From: Bacteroidales bacterium
Lineage (GTDB): Bacteria; Bacteroidota; Bacteroidia; Bacteroidales; JAIOZK01
Assembly: GCA_021738625.1 (NCBI GenBank)
Contig: JAIPBS010000007.1
Span: 22,100 to 86,099, forward strand
Reading direction: 5' to 3'
Length of the DNA stretch: 64,000 nt
The notes below the pieces were generated by a model, which did not search any database, was not told where the DNA came from, and saw only the letters and a list, made by a program, of their open reading frames with translations. Positions 7,497 through 57,365 of the stretch are shown here, one piece after another (the stretch's first letter is position 1; each line of letters starts with the position of its first letter). Both the position numbers and the translations under genes were made by a program.

Positions 7497-9647
7497 ATGG
7501 CAAGAAAGAAAAGAAAGATCAAAAAAGGAAGTAAAAACACCCTGGCATACAATATTTTGGGTGTGCTCGGTAAAAACCCCCACCGTGCCCTTAACTATAA
7601 ACAGATCGCTCATGCACTTGGCATCAAAGACAAAGCAAGCAAAAATCTTGTAGGAAATTTACTGGATGAACTTTCGATAGCGGGAGAGATCGATGAGATC
7701 AAAAAGGGGAAATACAAGCTGAACAAGGAAAACATTGCCCGGTTCGCTCACAAATACATTACCGGAAGGGTTGATATGAAAAAAACGGGCAAAGCCTATG
7801 TGATCAATGAAGAGGGAGGCGACGACATCTACATTGCATCAAACAACACCTATCACGCCCTGCACAATGATATTGTAAAGGTGATGTTGTTTCCTCAACG
7901 GAAAAACAAAAAACCCGAAGGTCAGATCATCGAGATCATCAAACGTTCGAAAGACGAATATGTCGGGATCATTGAAGTTAGTCCAACCTATGCTTTCCTG
8001 ATCCCGGACAGCAACCATATTGCTGCGGACATTTTTATTCCTGAAAGCAAACTAAAGGGCGCCAAAGACGGACAAAAAGTTGTTGTGAAGATCGCCGAAT
8101 GGCCCGAACATTCCAAAAATCCATTTGGAGAAGTAACACGCGTACTTGGCGAACCCGGCGATCACAATGTTGAAATGGAGTCTATTCTGGCCGAATACAA
8201 TGTTCCTTTTGCCTTTCCACGCCAAGCCGAAGATGAGGCCATCAACATTCCGGAAACCATCAGCAATCAGGAAATCAAAAAGAGAAAAGACTTCAGGAAT
8301 GCCTGGACCATCACCATCGACCCCGAAGACGCCAAAGATTTTGACGATGCCCTTTCTCTTCAAAAGTTGAATAACGGCAACCTGGAAGTGGGCATTCATA
8401 TAGCAGATGTTTCACATTATGTGAAACCCACCTCGGAAATTGATCAGGAAGCATACAAAAGAGCCACCTCGGTTTATCTTGTTGACCGGGTGATCCCCAT
8501 GTTGCCTGAAAAACTCTCCAACAAGGTTTGCTCGCTGCGGCCCAATGAAGAAAAACTTTGTTTTTCGGCAGTGTTTGAAATGGATCAAAAGGCAAAGGTG
8601 CAGAATGAATGGTTCGGTAAAACCATCATTAAATCAAACCGCAGATTCAATTATGAGGAGGTTCAGGACATCATCGAACAACAAAGGGGAGAATATGCCG
8701 ATGAGATATTAAGCCTGCACAAACTGGCTGAAAAGCTTCGCAGCGATCGTTTCAAAAAAGGTTCCATTAATTTCAAATCACAGGAAGTCCGCTTTAAGCT
8801 GGATAAAAACGGAGCCCCGCTGAGCGTTTACCTGAAAGAACAAAAAGACTCCAACAAGCTGATCGAAGATTTTATGCTTCTGGCCAACAGGAAAGTAGCC
8901 GAATTCGTAGGCAAACGCACGGGAAAAGAAAAACCCAAAACTTTTGTTTACCGTGTCCATGATACTCCCAGCCCGGAAAAGCTAAGCACCTTTATCGAAT
9001 TCGTTTCCAAACTCGGTTATAAGATCGATTTGAAAGACGATAGAAGCCTGGCCAGATCCTTCAATAATCTGTTCAGGGAAATTGAAGGAAAAGGGGAAGA
9101 ACATATGATCGAGAGCATTGCTATCCGAACGATGGCCAAAGCAGAGTACTCGATCGAAAACATCGGGCACTACGGATTGGCTTTTCCTTATTATACCCAT
9201 TTCACTTCTCCCATCCGGCGTTATCCCGACCTGGAAGTACATCGTTTGTTATTTGATTATTTGAACGGAAAGCCGTCGGCAAACCCGGTTGAAAAAGAAG
9301 ATATGTGCCAGCATGCTTCGGAAATGGAGAGAAACGCGGTTGAAGCCGAACGCGACTCGGTAAAATACAAACAGGCAGAGTATTTGTTGGATAAGATCGG
9401 GCAGGAATTTGAAGGCCTGATATCAGGTGTAAGCAAATGGGGGATTTACGTGGAATTGCTCGGAAACAAATGCGAGGGTATGATCCGCCTGCGCGATCTG
9501 GAAGATGATTTTTATTATCTGGATGAAGACAATTACAGGGTGATCGGGCAACGTCACGGAAATAGTTATAAGTTAGGAGATCAGGTTCGCATACGGGTTA
9601 AAAAAATTGACCTGTCACAAAAAGAGATGGATTACGAACTGGTTTAA
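7497..9647 (+). CDS. rnr: Ribonuclease R
   Basis: RNB catalytic motifs (DPEDAKDFDDA, HFTSPIRRYPDL) and a C-terminal S1 domain. The ATG at 7497 is preferred over the upstream TTG at 7464. Confidence 0.9.
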   Translation: MARKKRKIKKGSKNTLAYNILGVLGKNPHRALNYKQIAHALGIKDKASKNLVGNLLDELSIAGEIDEIKKGKYKLNKENIARFAHKYITGRVDMKKTGKAYVINEEGGDDIYIASNNTYHALHNDIVKVMLFPQRKNKKPEGQIIEIIKRSKDEYVGIIEVSPTYAFLIPDSNHIAADIFIPESKLKGAKDGQKVVVKIAEWPEHSKNPFGEVTRVLGEPGDHNVEMESILAEYNVPFAFPRQAEDEAINIPETISNQEIKKRKDFRNAWTITIDPEDAKDFDDALSLQKLNNGNLEVGIHIADVSHYVKPTSEIDQEAYKRATSVYLVDRVIPMLPEKLSNKVCSLRPNEEKLCFSAVFEMDQKAKVQNEWFGKTIIKSNRRFNYEEVQDIIEQQRGEYADEILSLHKLAEKLRSDRFKKGSINFKSQEVRFKLDKNGAPLSVYLKEQKDSNKLIEDFMLLANRKVAEFVGKRTGKEKPKTFVYRVHDTPSPEKLSTFIEFVSKLGYKIDLKDDRSLARSFNNLFREIEGKGEEHMIESIAIRTMAKAEYSIENIGHYGLAFPYYTHFTSPIRRYPDLEVHRLLFDYLNGKPSANPVEKEDMCQHASEMERNAVEAERDSVKYKQAEYLLDKIGQEFEGLISGVSKWGIYVELLGNKCEGMIRLRDLEDDFYYLDEDNYRVIGQRHGNSYKLGDQVRIRVKKIDLSQKEMDYELV

Positions 9648-50006: not shown

Positions 50007-50011
50007 TAAAA

Positions 50012-50068
50012 GTTACAGGTTGCACATTACAGGTTGCAAGTTTATACCTGTAACATGCAACTTGCAAC
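50012..50068. repeat. Cargo-less imperfect inverted repeat built of heptamers (TTACAGG/TTGCAAG words)
   Basis: TTACAGGT (50028-50035) pairs with ACCTGTAA (50046-50053). The flanking heptamers are partly complementary. Confidence 0.7.
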
Positions 50069-50125: not shown

Positions 50126-51436
50126 ATGATCGAAACAAAAATCGCTGTTATCGGCCTTGGATACGTCGGACTGCCCCTGGCAGTGGAGTTTTCGAAGAAA
50201 TACCCGGTTGTAGGTTTTGATGTTAAAAAGGAACGGGTGGAAGAGCTGGAAGAAGGCCATGACGCCACCATGGAAGTGGAGAGCGATTTGCTGAAATCAG
50301 TGCTGGTAGACAACCATGATCATGATAAAGGATTGTACGTTACCCATAGTAAAATATTCATTCAGGATTGCAATTATTATATCATAACGGTACCCACCCC
50401 TATTGATAAAAATAAACGGCCGGATCTGACGCCCCTGCTGAAGGCTTCCGAAACCGTTGGCAGCGTGCTGAAAAAGGGAGATATTGTTATTTATGAATCC
50501 ACGGTATATCCGGGAGCAACCGAAGAAGAATGTGTGCCGGTGCTTGAAAAATTCAGCGGCATGAAATTCAACAGGGATTTCTATTGCGGCTATTCGCCCG
50601 AACGCATTAATCCGGGTGACAAGGTGCATACGGTGAGCAAGATCAAAAAGGTAACCTCCGGCTCCACCCCTGAAGTGGCCGAGCAAGTCGATCAGCTTTA
50701 TAAAGCCGTGATCGAAGCGGGGACCCACAAGGCATCTTCCATGAAGGTTGCCGAGGCAGCCAAGGTGATCGAAAATTCTCAAAGAGACATCAATATCGCC
50801 TTTGTGAACGAACTGGCCGTGATTTTCGGCAAACTGGGTATCGACACCAACGAAGTGCTGGTAGCCGCCGGAACCAAATGGAATTTCCTTCCCTTTAAAC
50901 CCGGACTGGTTGGCGGGCATTGCATAGGGGTTGATCCTTATTACCTCACCCACAAGGCACAGGAGATCGGGCACAATCCCGAGATCATCCTCTCGGGCCG
51001 ACGCATGAACGACAATATGGGCGTTTACGTGAGCAACCAGGTGATCAAGCTGATGATCCAAAAAGGCCATAAAGTGGCAGGCTCGAAAGTTTTGGTACTG
51101 GGCATCACCTTCAAGGAAAATTGTCCCGACATCCGAAACTCAAAAGTTATCGACGTGATCAACGAACTAAAAGATTTCGAATGTGATGTAGACGTTTACG
51201 ATCCCTGGGCCAGCTTCGAAGAAGTTAAACATGAGTATGGCATTAATTTAATTTCTTCCACAAACTTTCCCCCTTTAGGGAGGACCGAGGGGGGTAAAGG
51301 CTACGACGCCATCATTCTCGCCGTTGCCCACGATAAATTCAGGGAACTCGACATTGAGGCCCTCAAAAACGGGAATGCAGTGGTTTATGATATTAAGGGA
51401 TTTTGGGATAAGGCTATGGTTGATGGGAGACTGTAA
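50126..51436 (+). CDS. Nucleotide-sugar 6-dehydrogenase (UDP-glucose/GDP-mannose dehydrogenase family, TviB/WbpO-like)
   Basis: [30 protein letters not shown]. Confidence 0.9.
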
Positions 51437-51695: not shown

Positions 51696-51917
51696 ATGGA
51701 TTATAAAAACCTAGATGTCTGGAAAAAATCTGTTGATTTTGTGACATTGATTTATTCCATTATTATTTATTGCACTTGGGTCATCAGCAGAAATTGAGAG
51801 CAACTTATTATTTCAGAAAATCTGAATTTCATCGAGGACAAAGAATCTATACTTGATCATTTAGCCACCGTAAGAAAACTTTTAAAAGGAACCATCAATT
51901 ACTTACAAAACAAATAG
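51696..51917 (+). pseudogene. Decayed four-helix-bundle (23S IVS protein / Avd family) gene, cassette 1
   Basis: N-terminus MDYKNLDVWKKSVDFV. The central FP..E.YGL..Q.RR..SI..NIAEG block is missing. ALGSSAEIE and the C-terminal helix are readable only in other frames. Confidence 0.6.
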
Positions 51918-51945
51918 AAGTAAAAAAATAATAGAACTAAGCACT

Positions 51946-51969
51946 CTATTCACTACTCACCGTTTACCG
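51946..51969. repeat. Right arm of cassette 1 (C/A-rich)
   Basis: CTATTCACTACTCACCGTTTACCG ends 7 nt before the epimerase ATG. Confidence 0.7.
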
Positions 51970-51975
51970 TAAGAA

Positions 51976-53211
51976 ATGGAAAAGATTCTAATCACCGGGA
52001 CAGCCGGCTTCATCGCTTACCACACAACCCTCAAATTCCTCTCCGAAGGATATGAAGTGGTAGGACTGGATAATATCAACGATTACTATGATATCAACCT
52101 GAAATATGGCAGGCTGGCTGAATCAGGTGTTACGGAGGATTCTGCAAGCAACTATTCGTTACAAGTTGCAAGTTCCATGTTGCAGGTAATAAGAGCAGAG
52201 AACACCCAAGCTGCAACCTGCAACTTGCAACCTGCAACTTTCAAAACCATGCAGGAATCCTCCCTCTTTGAATACGGGACCCTTTACCAAAGCAATACCT
52301 ACAAAAACTACCGCTTCATACGCCTGGCCCTGGAAGATTACGAAAGCCTGAAAGAGCTCTTTGAAAAGGAAAAATTCGACAAAGTGGTGCACCTGGCTGC
52401 ACAGGCAGGGGTACGCTACAGCCTGACCAATCCCTTTACCTATGCGGATTGTAACCTCAACGGCCACCTGAACATCATGGAAGCATGCAGGCATCATAAA
52501 GTCAAACACCTCGTCTATGCTTCCAGTTCCAGCGTTTACGGCTCCAACACAAAGATGCCTTTGTCCACCTCCGACAATGTGGATCATCCCATCAGCCTGT
52601 ACGCTGCCACCAAAAAAGCCAATGAGCTGATGTCATATACCTACAGTCATTTGTATGGCCTGCCTACAACCGGGCTGCGCTTTTTTACGGTTTACGGTCC
52701 CTGGGGCCGCCCCGATATGGCTCTTTTCCTGTTCACCAAAGCCATGCTCGAAGACAAACCCATCGACGTGTACAATCACGGTGAAATGTGGCGCGACTTT
52801 ACGTACGTGGAGGATATTGTGGAGGGAGTTTATCGTGTCACCTTTGATTCAAAAGCAATGACTTCAAAGATTTCAGATACCAAATTCCAGATACCAAATT
52901 CCGGCCCAGCTCAAAATTCAAAGTTCAAAACTCAAAACTCAATTGCCGATCCTTCAACATCAGCTCCTTTCAAGGTATATAACATCGGCAACTCCTCCCC
53001 GGTCAAGCTGCTGGATTTTATCAAAGCCATTGAAGATAAACTCGGGGTAAAGGCAAAGATGAACATGATGGACATGCAGCCGGGCGACGTTCCCAAAACC
53101 TGGGCCGATACCACCGACCTGGAAGCTGATGTGGGGTATAAACCGGATACTAGCGTGGAGGTGGGAGTTGGGAGGTTTGTGGAATGGTACAGGGAATATT
53201 ATTGTTCGTAG
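51976..53211 (+). CDS. NAD-dependent nucleotide-sugar epimerase (UDP-glucuronate 4-epimerase-like) with two in-frame simple-sequence insertions
   Basis: ITGTAGFIAYH, LAAQAGVRYS, YASSSSVYG, YAATKK, TGLRFFTVYGPWGRPDMA. Confidence 0.85.
   Translation: MEKILITGTAGFIAYHTTLKFLSEGYEVVGLDNINDYYDINLKYGRLAESGVTEDSASNYSLQVASSMLQVIRAENTQAATCNLQPATFKTMQESSLFEYGTLYQSNTYKNYRFIRLALEDYESLKELFEKEKFDKVVHLAAQAGVRYSLTNPFTYADCNLNGHLNIMEACRHHKVKHLVYASSSSVYGSNTKMPLSTSDNVDHPISLYAATKKANELMSYTYSHLYGLPTTGLRFFTVYGPWGRPDMALFLFTKAMLEDKPIDVYNHGEMWRDFTYVEDIVEGVYRVTFDSKAMTSKISDTKFQIPNSGPAQNSKFKTQNSIADPSTSAPFKVYNIGNSSPVKLLDFIKAIEDKLGVKAKMNMMDMQPGDVPKTWADTTDLEADVGYKPDTSVEVGVGRFVEWYREYYCS
52158..52238. repeat. 81-nt heptamer inverted repeat inside the epimerase CDS
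   Basis: Left arm GTTACAAGTTGCAAGTTCCATGTTGCAGGT versus right arm AGCTGCAACCTGCAACTTGCAACCTGCAAC (25/30 complementary) with a 21-nt loop. Confidence 0.8.
52884..52954. repeat. Second in-frame heptamer tract in the epimerase CDS
   Basis: CAGATAC-CAAATTC twice, then CTCAAAA/TTCAAAG/TTCAAAA/CTCAAAA/CTCAATT. Both parts are C/A-rich. Confidence 0.7.
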
Positions 53212-53234
53212 TTGGTTGTTGGTAGTTGGTAGTG
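53203..53234. repeat. Left arm of cassette 2 (GTTGGTT/GTTGGTA heptamers)
   Basis: Overlaps the last codons and the stop of the epimerase gene. Confidence 0.75.
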
Positions 53235-53251
53235 TGTCATAACAAATTATT

Positions 53252-53624
53252 GTGGAAAAATCTGATTTTGAAAATTTAGAAGTATGGCAAAAAGGAATGA
53301 CCTTAGCTGAGTTTTGCCTTGATTTAACTAATAGACTATCAAATCAGAAAAAACATTACAGATTAATCGAACAACTTGAGAGTTCTTCGATGGGTATTCC
53401 ACAAAATATTGCTGAAGGTAAAGGCCGTTTTTCAAAAAAATGAATTTTTACAGTTCTTATATTATGCCAGAGGATCATTATATGAAACTATAACCATAAT
53501 AATCATCTTTTATCGAAAGGAATGGATAAACCAAGATGAGCATGCTTCATTCAGAGTAATGTCGAATGAATTAAGTATAAAATTAAATGCATTAATTAAC
53601 AGTATTAAAAGAGGCATGAAATAA
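53252..53624 (+). pseudogene. Frameshifted four-helix-bundle gene, cassette 2
   Basis: GTG start. FENLEVWQKG...IPQNIAEGKGRFSKK then TGA. The family continues in the +1 frame (EFLQFLYYARGSLYET...). The shift lies at the A7 run 53434-53440. Confidence 0.7.
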
Positions 53625-53742: not shown

Positions 53743-54651
53743 ATGAATCAATACAAACTAAACAACCTCCGCGAACTCGAGGCCGAAAGCATCCACATCA
53801 TCCGCGAGGTGGCTGCCGAATTTGAAAATCCCGTGATGCTCTATTCCATCGGGAAAGATTCATCGGTGATGGTACGCCTGGCCGAAAAAGCCTTTCATCC
53901 CGGTAAAGTGCCTTTTCCGTTGATGCACATCGACTCCAAATGGAAGTTCAGGGAAATGACGGCCTTTCGCGACAGGTATGCCAAAGAAAACAACTGGGAC
54001 CTGATCGTGCATTACAATAAAAAGGGTTTTGAGGAAGGCGTCGGGCCGTTCACCCACGGCAGCAAAGTACATACCGACATCATGAAAACCCAGGCCCTGC
54101 TGGAAGGGCTTACCAAATACGGCTTTGATGCAGCCTTCGGGGGCGCCCGCCGCGACGAGGAGAAATCACGCGCCAAAGAGCGGGTCTTTTCTTTTCGCGA
54201 CCGTTATCATCAATGGGATCCCAAGAATCAGCGTCCGGAGCTGTGGAATATTTATAATGCACGGGTCCATAAAGGTGAATCCATTCGCGTGTTCCCGCTC
54301 AGCAACTGGACCGAGCTGGACATCTGGCAGTACATCCGCCTGGAGGAAATCCCCATCGTGCCCCTGTATTTTGCAAAGGAAAGACCCATCGTGGAATGGA
54401 GCAACGCCCTTATTCTGGTTGACGACGAACGCATGCCCAAAGAGCTGGCTGATACTGCCAAAATGCGCAAGGTGCGCTTCCGCACGCTCGGTTGTTATCC
54501 CCTCACCGGTGCAGTTGAATCTGAAGCCGATACCGTTGAAAAGATCGTGGAAGAAATGATGACAGTGACCAAATCGGAAAGAACCACCAGGGTGATCGAC
54601 TTCGACCAGGAAGCGAGTATGGAGCAGAAGAAACGGGAAGGGTATTTTTAG
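53743..54651 (+). CDS. cysD: Sulfate adenylyltransferase subunit 2
   Basis: PAPS-reductase-fold N-terminus ([11 protein letters not shown]). High overall CysD-like pattern, ending ...EQKKREGYF. Confidence 0.95.
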
Positions 54652-54865
54652 GTTCAGAAGCTGAGAGGTTCAGAGGTTCAGAAGCTGAGAGGTTCAGAGG
54701 TTCAGAAGCTGAGAGGTTCAGAGGTTCAGAAGCTGAGAGGTTCAGAGGTTCAGAAACTGAGAGGTTCAGAGGTTCAGAAGCTGAGAGGTTCAGAGGTTCA
54801 GAAGCTGAGAAGTTCAGAGGTTCAGAAGCTGAGAGGTTCAGAGGTTTAAAAGTTCAAAGGCTTAG
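54651..54865. repeat. Left arm of cassette 3: 8 copies of a 24-bp unit (octamers GGTTCAGA/AGCTGAGA/GGTTCAGA) plus a degenerate copy
   Basis: The period-24 register was verified at 54651, 54675, 54699, 54723, 54747, 54771, 54795 and 54819. The array starts on the last base of the cysD stop codon. Confidence 0.95.
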
Positions 54866-54870
54866 TAGAA

Positions 54871-55233
54871 ATGGCGACTCATGAAACACTGGATATCTGG
54901 AAAATGTCTATTGATCTTGTTGAATTGATTTATAAATTGACCAGGCAGTTTCCAACCGAAGAAAAATATGGCCTTACAAATCAAATCAGAAGATGTGCTG
55001 TCTCAATTCCATCTAATATTGCTGAAGGTTCTGCAAGACAGACAGACAAAGAAAATTTACAGTTTCTATACATTGCATTGGGTTCAGTGGCTGAACTCGA
55101 AACTCAGTTGATCATTGCCAGGCGACTGAATTATATTCAGGATGATTCTATTTTAACTCAGACCAAAATGATCAAAGCCAAAATGATCAATTATATGAAA
55201 TACCTTAAATCATTAAAAAACAAAAACCGGTAG
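54871..55233 (+). CDS. Four-helix-bundle protein (23S rRNA IVS protein / Avd family), cassette 3, intact
   Basis: [10 protein letters not shown]...[27 protein letters not shown]...[19 protein letters not shown]. Confidence 0.85.
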
Positions 55234-55295: not shown

Positions 55296-55440
55296 CATTT
55301 GAACCTCTGAACCTCTGAACATTTGAACCTCTGAACATTTGAACCTCTGAACATTTGAACCTCTGAACATTTGAACCTCTGAACATTTGAACCTCTGAAC
55401 TTCTGAACCTTTAAACTTCTGAACCTTTAAGCATTTAAAC
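55296..55440. repeat. Right arm of cassette 3: octamer array (CATTTGAA/CCTCTGAA, 16-bp unit)
   Basis: Its reverse complement (TTCAGAGG-TTCAAATG)n shares GTTCAGAGGTTCA with each left-arm unit. Confidence 0.9.
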
Positions 55441-55457
55441 CAACTACCAACTACCAA
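55439..55457. repeat. CCAACTA heptamer tract directly upstream of cysN, complementary to the cassette-2 left arm
   Basis: The reverse complement TTGGTAGTTGGTAGT matches 15/15 within 53218-53233. Confidence 0.7.
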
Positions 55458-55460
55458 AAT

Positions 55461-57365
55461 ATGGACATAAAAGAATTTCTTGATCAAGATCAAAAGAAAG
55501 ACCTGCTCAGGTTATTAACCGCAGGCTCAGTTGACGATGGTAAGAGTACATTAATCGGTCGTTTGCTTTTCGATAGCAAAAAACTCTACGAAGACCACCT
55601 GGCCGCCCTCGAACGCGACAGCAAACGCGAAGGCCACGCCGGAGGTGAAATAGATTATGCCCTGCTGTTGGACGGCCTGAAAGCCGAACGCGAACAGGGC
55701 ATCACCATCGATGTGGCCTATCGCTATTTTTCCACCAATAAAAGAAAGTTCATCATAGCCGATACCCCCGGCCATGAACAATACACCCGCAACATGATCA
55801 CAGGCGGTTCCACGGCCAACCTTGCCATCCTATTGGTGGACGCCCGCCACGGCGTGATCACACAAACCAAAAGGCATACCTTCCTGGTTAGCCTGCTGGG
55901 CATAAAGCATGTGGTGGTGGCCATCAATAAAATGGATTTGGTGGACTATAGCAAGGAGGTGTATGATAAGATCGTGGAGGATTACAAAAGTTTTGTGACT
56001 TCACTCGGTATCCCCGACATCAATTTCATACCGCTTTCCGCACTCAAAGGCGACAACGTGGTTGACCTTTCGGAACGAATGCCCTGGTACCATGGCACAA
56101 GCATGCTGGAGTTCCTGGAAACGGTGCACGTAACCTCCGATAAAAACTTTGAAGACCTGCGCTACCCGGTTCAGTATGTGATCCGCCCCGACCTCAAATA
56201 CAGAGGATTCGCCGGCAGGATGGCTTCCGGCATCCTCCGCAAGGGAGACGAAGTGATGGTGTTGCCTTCCCGACAGAAGGCCTTTGTGAAAAGCATAGAT
56301 ACCTATAACGGGGAGCTGGCCTATGCTTTCCCTCCGCAATCCGTAACCGTTGCGCTCGACAGGGAAATAGACGTTTCCCGCGGTGAAATGCTGGTGCCCC
56401 CCAACAACATCCCGCGCATCGAACGGCACTTTGAAGCCATGCTGGTGTGGATGGATGAAAAACCCATGGATCCCTACACCCAGTTCTACATCAAGCAAAC
56501 CACCAACAACACCAAGGCGCGCATCGACAAGCTCCGTTTTAAGATCGATGTGAACACCCTGGAAAAATCCCAAGCCGATCACTTCGAGCTGAACGAGATC
56601 GGAAGGGTAGTGATGACCACGGTTAAACCGCTGTTCTTCGATCCCTATAAAAAGAATCACAATACCGGTTCGTTCGTGTTGATCGATCCCATCACCCACA
56701 ATACCGTGGCCGTGGGAATGATCCTGGACAAGGTTTCCGGTGATCACTATTCACGACTCACCCTTCACGATTCACAAAAGATCGTGAAAGGGGAATCCCT
56801 GATAAGTGAAAAGGAACGTCAAAAAAGATACAACCAGAAAGGCTCGACTCTTTGGATCACGGGATTGCACGGAAGCGGCAAAAACGAACTGGCCTATTCT
56901 CTCGAGAAACGTTTGTTCGAAATGGGCGCCACGGTGGTGCTGCTCGACGGCAAATCGGTGCGCTCGGGGCTGAGCCGCGAACTCGACTTTTCTCCCGCCG
57001 ACCGGGCAGAGCACCTCAGAAGGGTGGCGCACATCTGTAAGCTGCTCAACGATCAGGGTGTCATCACCATTTGCTCCTTCGTGTCACCTGACGAAAATAC
57101 ACGCACCCAGGTTGCTGAGATCATCGGTGAAAACCGCTTCAAACTTATTCATCTGGATGCAGACATCGAATTTGCCAAAAAGAACGACAAATACGGCCTG
57201 TATAAAATGGCTGAAAACGCTGAGCTCAAACATATGCCCGGCATCGACGATCGCTACGAAGAACCCCAATCCGCAGACATCACAATCAAAGCGGAAGACG
57301 ACGGGAAGAACGTGGAAGGAATATTGGAGAAGCTGGCGGAGTGGAAGATTTTCCCCAGGGAGTGA
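55461..57365 (+). CDS. cysN: Sulfate adenylyltransferase subunit 1 (GTPase) fused to a degenerate APS-kinase-like domain
   Basis: [18 protein letters not shown]. The C-terminal domain from 56841 has GLHGSGKNE and LDGKSVR in place of GLSGSGKST and LDGDNVR. Confidence 0.9.

Follow-up and report, generated by a model that had tools for sequence, protein, structure and literature searches.

A heptamer-armed hairpin in the reading frame of a Bacteroidales epimerase gene: probably a cargo-less repeat element that a permissive loop accommodates and that is translated with the gene

The metagenome-assembled genome (MAG) of a Bacteroidales bacterium (assembly GCA_021738625.1) contains a gene for a UDP-glucuronate 4-epimerase-like protein with an 81-nt hairpin in its reading frame. 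The gene lies in a stretch of 64,000 nucleotides on contig JAIPBS010000007.1 (positions 22,100 to 86,099 of the forward strand), which is called the window below; positions without a contig or locus label count from its first nucleotide. The hairpin is built from two inverted arrays of heptamers and probably represents a cargo-less element that is tolerated in a permissive loop of the enzyme and translated with it. It would belong to a type of inverted heptamer array that is found singly between genes and around genes of the PF05635 family, annotated as '23S rRNA intervening sequence (IVS) protein'.

The hairpin (52158–52238, forward strand) consists of three parts. The left arm (52158–52187, 30 nt, GTTACAAGTTGCAAGTTCCATGTTGCAGGT) contains four GTTGCAG-type heptamers, GTTACAA, GTTGCAA, GTTCCAT and GTTGCAG, followed by GT. 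It is separated by a loop of 21 nt (52188–52208, AATAAGAGCAGAGAACACCCA) from the right arm (52209–52238, AGCTGCAACCTGCAACTTGCAACCTGCAAC), which consists of four CTGCAAC-type heptamers and is complementary to the left arm at 25 of 30 positions. The total of 81 nt corresponds to 27 codons, and the hairpin is in frame within the open reading frame (ORF) at 51976–53211. A preliminary description had given this anatomy, including the coordinates, the complementarity of the arms and the preserved frame, and all of it was confirmed on the sequence. Tandem Repeats Finder reports period-7 arrays at 52158–52184 and 52207–52238, and an inverted-repeat search returns arms of 28 nt with 86% complementarity. 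The RNA of region 52140–52260 is predicted to fold with −36.4 kcal/mol (z = −3.8), and only one of 200 dinucleotide shuffles is as stable. For the 87-nt hairpin core, z is −5.4 and none of 300 mononucleotide shuffles reaches the same stability.

The host gene (51976–53211, forward strand) encodes a protein of 411 amino acids and bears two repeat inserts, of which the hairpin is the first. The protein matches the Pfam family Epimerase (PF01370; E-value 1.8e-50), with 285 of its residues spread over only 224 profile positions, and its best solved match is PDB entry 5u4q (E-value 6e-131). An AlphaFold2 model built from a 120-sequence alignment has a mean predicted local distance difference test (pLDDT) score of 87.6, and the top Foldseek matches are 5u4q (TM-score 0.86, normalised to 5u4q) and the UDP-GlcA 4-epimerase of Bacillus cereus. 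The protein is an extended short-chain dehydrogenase/reductase (SDR): G8 and G11 of the N-terminal NAD-binding motif (GxxGxxG/A) and the residues Y209 and K213 of the catalytic Ser...YxxxK motif are unchanged across 120 homologues. A substrate specificity of the UDP-glucuronate 4-epimerase type is suggested by the names of the homologues and by the neighbouring UDP-glucose 6-dehydrogenase gene (50126–51436), which precedes the epimerase gene.

Selection on the gene was assessed by the ratio of nonsynonymous to synonymous differences (pN/pS) relative to P0002, the closest orthologue, which is 82% identical. The ratio for the epimerase core is 0.11 and, judged from such sequence comparisons, the epimerase is a working gene under purifying selection and not a pseudogene. 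The whole arrangement could in principle reflect an assembly artefact or an inactive pseudogene, as the draft genome comprises 82 contigs and repeats can mislead assemblers. This is nevertheless extremely improbable: the identical protein is recorded on five contigs, the same architecture is present in independent assemblies of relatives, and both the unchanged key residues and the low core ratio speak for a functional gene.

Alignments place the hairpin within a clade-specific insert in the β2–β3 crossover of the Rossmann domain, referred to as loop 1. The segment from L47 to Y112 comprises 66 amino acids here and 24–26 in 93 of the 120 homologues, which agrees with the 25–30 amino acids that the preliminary description had given for Bacteroides homologues. 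In 5u4q, only four residues are found where the epimerase has 61. The envelope of the insert (52141–52266, forward strand; approximately residues 56–97) is delimited by alignment with baseline homologues that do not have the segment. The preliminary description had equated the extra sequence with the hairpin. The hairpin is indeed its core and codes for 27 of the 41 extra residues, but the additional material amounts to about 41–42 residues and thus exceeds the 81 nt. The known SDR fold suggests that loop 1 and a second insert-bearing loop are both located at the surface. A disordered loop, as had been considered for site 1, is not what AlphaFold2 predicts; the model contains short helices at residues 63–73, 77–80 and 86–93, with pLDDT values of 75–90.

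The second in-frame repeat insert is located in loop 2 (52870–52942, forward strand) and had gone unmentioned in the preliminary description. Repeat searches resolve it into 2.4 copies of ATTCCAGATACCAA followed by 4.6 copies of TCAAAAT, and baseline homologues are about 20 amino acids shorter at this position. No hairpin is left in this copy (fold z = +1.15); orthologues have hairpins of the GTTGCAG type or of other types there. The low pLDDT values of residues 291–320 (55–64) fit a flexible loop. With a pN/pS of 1.29 relative to P0002, a value based on small counts from 32 codons, site 2 looks as if it evolves neutrally.

The history of both loops was examined in 40 related genomes, which were searched in six frames, and in the DNA of eight further metagenomic orthologues. 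The epimerase gene is present in all five genomes of the same genus, with open frames of 405–555 amino acids and no internal stops; the frames in other families of the order comprise 349–386 amino acids. Both loops are filled in nearly all same-genus and metagenomic orthologues. Repeat-built inserts that vary in content and are always open occur at the two loops in all same-genus orthologues and in about ten metagenomic relatives. Hairpins of the GTTGCAG/CTGCAAC type occupy site 1 of G000, P0002, P0006 and G004, and site 2 of G004 and P0004. P0005 contains GTTACGG/CCCGCAA-type hairpins at both sites, TTGAAAT/ATTTCAA hairpins are found at site 1 of P0003 and P0004, and CAGATTA/CAATCGA units at site 2 of P0002 and P0003. 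Other repeat families are present in G003 and G002, the latter with about 170 amino acids of 'ARGDHAWGDTRDD' repeats at site 2. In P0006 and P0007 a second heptamer array is nested within the loop, and site 2 of P0006 has a single arm only. An epimerase of 555 amino acids is encoded by locus L085 (identical to L001) of a same-genus MAG from soil of the Salar de Ascotan, where site 2 contains about 500 nt of in-frame tandem repeats coding for 'ARGDHAWGDTRDD'.

The potential to form a hairpin (z ≤ −3.6, with none of 300 shuffles as good) is kept in eight of nine site-1 inserts and in three of eight site-2 inserts; it is lost at site 2 of G000 and P0006 and in G001. An ancestral segment of equal length that lacks heptamer periodicity, which the preliminary description had named as the alternative to an insertion, is not present in close homologues. 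What they have at this site varies in length, shows a heptamer periodicity of its own and can form hairpins. By their gene cores, P0002 and P0003 are sisters and have site 2 in common; their site-1 inserts are nevertheless different, that of P0003 being similar to the one in P0004. Across the orthologues, the distribution of unit types at the loops is discordant with the relatedness of the gene cores, which points to replacement or recombination at the loops.

Additional copies in the relatives illustrate this turnover. In G041 (P0019, locus L099), a hairpin element of 83 nt is 100% identical at both epimerase loops. A near-perfect intergenic GGGTTTT/AAAACCC hairpin (−89 kcal/mol; L106 1480–1600, G041:C2 ~9535–9619) is located about 1.2 kb upstream of this locus and is 74–77% identical to both copies in the coding sequence (CDS). 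This intergenic hairpin adjoins the start of a regulator-like gene. The contig of P0002 contains one GTTGCAG hairpin within the CDS and another directly 3' of the stop codon. Copies of the element thus appear to move or to convert between sites.

In the wider set, long segments are found at site 1 in 27 of 120 homologues and at site 2 in about 51 of 120. In a MAG of Sulfurimonas sp. (L069), which belongs to another phylum, unrelated and strongly palindromic in-frame repeats (−52 and −75 kcal/mol) occupy the same two loops of the orthologous epimerase. In the orthologues examined, neither loop contains a gene. A full PF05635 cassette inside the epimerase gene was considered for L008 and L042, whose tblastn matches span ~1750 nt, and was rejected, since the extra length stems from a downstream paralogue in L042 and from duplicated 3' fragments in L008. 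In L008 (2650–3280), the 3' end of a Prolixibacteraceae epimerase gene is apparently repeated two more times downstream, and these copies are marked by near-identical antisense ORFs starting MRWLHPLGAGVAMASGFKIMF.

The same data bear on the possibility that the insert serves a function, either as a sub-domain for oligomerisation or regulation or as a neuO-like switch, in which heptamer slippage would turn an enzyme of a polysaccharide locus on and off because 7 is not a multiple of 3. Contingency loci of this type have a long perfect repeat tract that varies in copy number between and within strains and shifts the frame. Retention of the insert throughout the clade would fit such a role, as would the fairly confidently predicted helices of site 1 and its pN/pS of 0.41 relative to P0002, which is below neutrality and, like the value for site 2, based on small counts from 32 codons. 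There is also a precedent in neuO, a capsule-modifying gene in which heptanucleotide repeats can be translated and phase-variable (PMC13001214). An adaptive insert is nevertheless very unlikely. Close relatives have had the content of the loops replaced as a whole, and the pN/pS of site 2 points to neutral evolution. About four imperfect units per arm are a poor substrate for slippage in comparison with the 3–53 perfect units of neuO, and no phase variation is seen among the sampled genomes, in which all orthologues are in frame and 'on'. Finally, the unrelated repeats at the same loops in Sulfurimonas indicate tolerance rather than function.

The reading frames likewise make translation of the insert into an additional loop the most likely outcome. 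Heptamer arrays naturally change in steps of 7 nt, and yet all orthologues are in frame and free of stop codons over both loops. The unit GTTGCAG and its complement contain no stop codon in any of the six frames, which permits read-through of any copy with a multiple of three nucleotides. The left-arm unit of P0003 and P0004 is AATTTGA, and its third repeat would give an in-frame TGA; CGA or GGA is found at this position instead. Inserts that have lost the hairpin are still held open in frame. The predicted tryptic peptides of the inserts are LAESGVTEDSASNYSLQVASSMLQVIR and AENTQAATCNLQPATFK. An enrichment of stop-free units was considered as a sign of adaptation to coding, but 50% of the arrays are stop-free on both strands compared with 41% of random heptamers, which is too weak a difference for such a claim.

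The preliminary description had left a choice between a tolerated surface loop and removal at the RNA level. Removal might proceed, for example, by cleavage of the stem by an RNase III-type activity and ligation to a mature mRNA without the insert, but no route for it is known. The stem of about 25–28 bp does resemble those of the intervening sequences that are cut out of 23S rRNA by RNase III (PMC4990558), and the element family is associated with IVS-type PF05635 genes in this genome. Excision of intervening sequences, however, leaves the RNA unjoined (PMC4990558), and an mRNA treated in this way would be destroyed. Removal would also leave no reason for variants that are multiples of three and stop-free, with mutated TGA codons, and the hairpin-less inserts at site 2 of G000 and in G001 remain in frame. 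Rfam contains no family matching the region 51900–53300 at E-values up to 1. Loss of the insert from the transcript thus has a negligible probability, and it is the tolerated loop that gains support, from the comparison with homologues, the open frames and the low pN/pS of the core. A milder effect on the RNA is possible, namely a reduced amount of mRNA if RNase III were drawn to the stem of approximately 25 bp.

Hairpins and arrays related to the epimerase element are dispersed over the genome. Period-7 arrays number 406, compared with 74 in a shuffled genome (approximately 5-fold), and period-21 arrays number 60, compared with 2. About 208 of the heptamer arrays are clean, roughly 90% of them being situated outside long open frames. 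Four further hairpins have arms of the GTTGCAG type, all of them intergenic (C76:103578, C44:4751, C25:187208 and 50009–50068 in the window), and approximately eight single arms of this type are present in the genome. The copy in the window (50009–50068, C74:72108–72167, forward strand) has the arms GTTACAG GTTGCAC ... / ... CATGCAA CTTGCAAC and is part of the dehydrogenase leader.

Inverted arrays are also found around PF05635 genes. The genome contains 18 PF05635 matches. Inverted heptamer arrays flank at least six of 17 PF05635 genes on both sides, every pair with a unit of its own. A GTTGGTA array (53202–53233, forward strand) extends over the stop codon of the epimerase gene and constitutes the left arm of an adjacent four-helix-bundle cassette. 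GTTGGTA arms at this position bracket a PF05635 gene both here and in the contig of P0005 (L097), and in the contig of P0004 (L100) they surround a decayed PF05635 remnant. At C18:78341, a GTTGCAG array forms the left arm of a further decayed PF05635 copy. Compared with the layout of such cassettes, the epimerase hairpin has the inverted 7-nt arrays and lacks the gene between them, where the 21-nt loop is found. Intact and decayed PF05635 genes between GTTGGTA arms, together with the cargo-less hairpins, suggest a series from intact through decaying cassettes to hairpins without cargo within one neighbourhood.

The preliminary description had proposed that a structure of the intergenic bracket type had landed in a CDS. 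The four intergenic hairpins with the same type of arm, the inverted arrays at no fewer than six PF05635 genes and the baseline homologues without the segment favour this proposal, while a recent single landing is contradicted by a site that has been filled since the base of the clade and has turned over ever since. The filled site could also be taken as a sign of an origin in situ, in which a lineage-specific loop grew by slippage of a proto-repeat and inverted duplication through template switching, with no insertion from elsewhere. Such an origin would be consistent with a conserved HPAT motif 3' of the insert, which is a CCTGCAAC unit in several orthologues, with a hairpin loop that is unique in the genome and with the lack of a target-site duplication. 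It does not account for the occurrence of the same arm family elsewhere in the genome, in no fewer than four hairpins between genes and in several single arms, nor for the identical 83-nt copies in the loops of G041 and their similarity to a nearby intergenic hairpin. In addition, the unit families of the two loops are discordant with core relatedness, as P0002 and P0003 demonstrate, and growth in place is accordingly unlikely.

Under the explanation we favour, that of a tolerated cargo-less element, one element would have entered loop 1 of the epimerase in the ancestor of the genus-level clade, and a second one a loop of the C-terminal domain. The in-frame copy would be read through and would yield an extra excursion of 27–41 residues (...SLQVASSMLQVIRAENTQAATCNLQPAT...). 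The inserts would then have evolved in place by repeat slippage, coordinated change of the two arms, nested insertion, decay, and copying or gene conversion between copies, and selection would have retained only in-frame, stop-free versions. The element would provide no benefit to its host.

Several points weigh against this explanation. A blastn search of the whole genome with the epimerase hairpin matched the arms alone; the loop sequence is found nowhere else, and the element as a whole never recurs. The 21-nt loop contains no remnant of a cargo gene, and a target-site duplication is absent from the hairpin, as its flanks (...AACTATTC and TTTCAAAACC) share no direct repeat longer than 2–3 nt. 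These features do not demonstrate that the epimerase copy arrived as a separate mobile unit or that it derives from a complete cassette. The site-1 peptide may not be selectively neutral, because its pN/pS is reduced and its helices are predicted with fair confidence, and the constraint may act at the level of the protein or of the nucleic acid. Individual 'compensatory' changes in the arms cannot be scored rigorously either, because arms made of tandem repeats pair in several registers. Covariation between G000 and P0002 was set aside for this comparison, since their 93-nt regions align without gaps but the best folds are two heptamers out of register, and hairpin z-scores are used in place of per-pair compensatory counts.

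A more far-reaching proposal is that heptamer-armed hairpins constitute an undescribed class of mobile or self-copying elements. The autonomous form would carry a PF05635 gene, which codes for an Avd-like four-helix bundle, and a dedicated hairpin-directed mechanism would copy or convert the cargo-less copies between hairpin sites. This proposal is speculative and rather doubtful at present. If it were true, the two epimerase loops would be recurrent landing pads, the identical copies in G041 would reflect recent copying, and landings in permissive enzyme loops would create fast-evolving translated segments.

Among known systems, the Rickettsia palindromic elements (RPE; Ogata et al. 2000, 2002, as summarised in PMC10969869) are similar in being short multi-copy palindromes that are present in frame in unrelated housekeeping genes. 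RPE are read through as a peptide compatible with the fold of the host protein and are regarded as selfish DNA (PMC10969869), and a corresponding read-through is presumed for the epimerase element. RPE differ in that their families, of about 100–150 bp, encode a conserved consensus peptide and belong to Alphaproteobacteria with an obligate intracellular life. The epimerase element, in contrast, comprises 81 nt with heptamer arms of copy-specific unit and an unconserved loop, and occurs in a Bacteroidota MAG of free-living type. Its arm type also brackets PF05635 genes, and the same two loops are refilled repeatedly. The element thus seems RPE-like in its behaviour and outside the RPE sequence families, from which their description sets it apart.

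The 23S rRNA intervening sequences of Coxiella and Leptospira, which contain an S23p/PF05635 ORF (PMC4990558), share with the heptamer-armed elements terminal inverted repeats that pair to a stem of about 28 bp, and PF05635 is the cargo of the heptamer-armed cassettes described here. They differ in being located in helix 45 of the rRNA, whereas the epimerase copy is cargo-less, lies in the coding region of an mRNA and shows no sign of excision.

Heptanucleotide repeats are over-represented in bacteria and have been little studied (PMC4692102). Tandem examples are the short tandemly repeated repetitive (STRR) sequences of cyanobacteria and the G-rich heptamers of Xanthomonas and Nostoc (PMC4692102), and the 5'-AAGACTC-3' repeats inside the CDS of neuO are translated when the frame is kept (PMC13001214). 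These arrays resemble the ones described here in their 7-nt units, their strong over-representation and their mostly intergenic position near gene ends. They are direct arrays, however, which form G-quadruplexes or are phase-variable, whereas complementary arrays give rise to a hairpin here.

Miniature inverted-repeat transposable elements (MITE) and the repetitive extragenic palindromic sequences and bacterial interspersed mosaic elements (REP/BIME; PMC10969869) are likewise small, non-autonomous, hairpin-forming and dispersed, with occasional in-frame fusions. Unlike them, the epimerase element has neither a target-site duplication nor a conserved full-length consensus. MITE are defined by terminal inverted repeats related to an insertion sequence together with a target-site duplication; no such duplication is present at the epimerase hairpin, and no search was made for a related insertion sequence. 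A description of heptamer-armed hairpins in coding regions was not found in the literature searched.

Further arrays in the genome show the range of contexts in which such repeats occur. The interval 49.8–63.4 kb, the last 14 kb of the window, contains 14 of the approximately 208 clean heptamer arrays and thus represents a local hot spot, which coincides with a polysaccharide and sulfate-activation locus. The inverted arrays on either side of an intact PF05635 gene at 54871–55233 (54650–54846 and 55300–55441; AGGTTCAG... / TGAACCTC...) have periods of 24 and 16 nt, and bracket arms are therefore not always heptamers. A TCACGAT-type heptamer array (56744–56775, forward strand) is in frame in the linker of a cysN/cysC fusion gene, whose 644-amino-acid product combines an EF-Tu-like CysN with the adenosine 5'-phosphosulfate (APS) kinase CysC. 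It is situated between the Pfam domains GTP-eEF1A_C (residues 333–431) and APS_kinase (residues 470–620). Elsewhere in the genome, two paralogous hybrid sensor kinases (C36:14865–14943 and C8:89–167) have a TTAGCTT/AGCTAAA hairpin in frame within HATPase_c, where it adds about 27 amino acids to the domain, so that 136 residues cover 109 profile positions. ATCCAGT heptamer arrays are found in frame in the kinase–receiver linkers of hybrid histidine kinases (C8:511–538 and C8:17041–17131).

In-frame palindromic repeats in housekeeping genes have so far been treated as a peculiarity of Rickettsia. The epimerase gene extends them to a lineage of Bacteroidota, with a structurally different, tandem-heptamer hairpin, and offers a testable example of selfish repeats that lengthen proteins. 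It shows where a common fold tolerates approximately 30–170 extra residues. For annotation, it serves as a caution that a repeat element which is translated can lie behind an unusual stretch of low complexity in an otherwise conserved enzyme. Finally, it may connect heptanucleotide repeats with the PF05635 genes, a family that is still unexplained.

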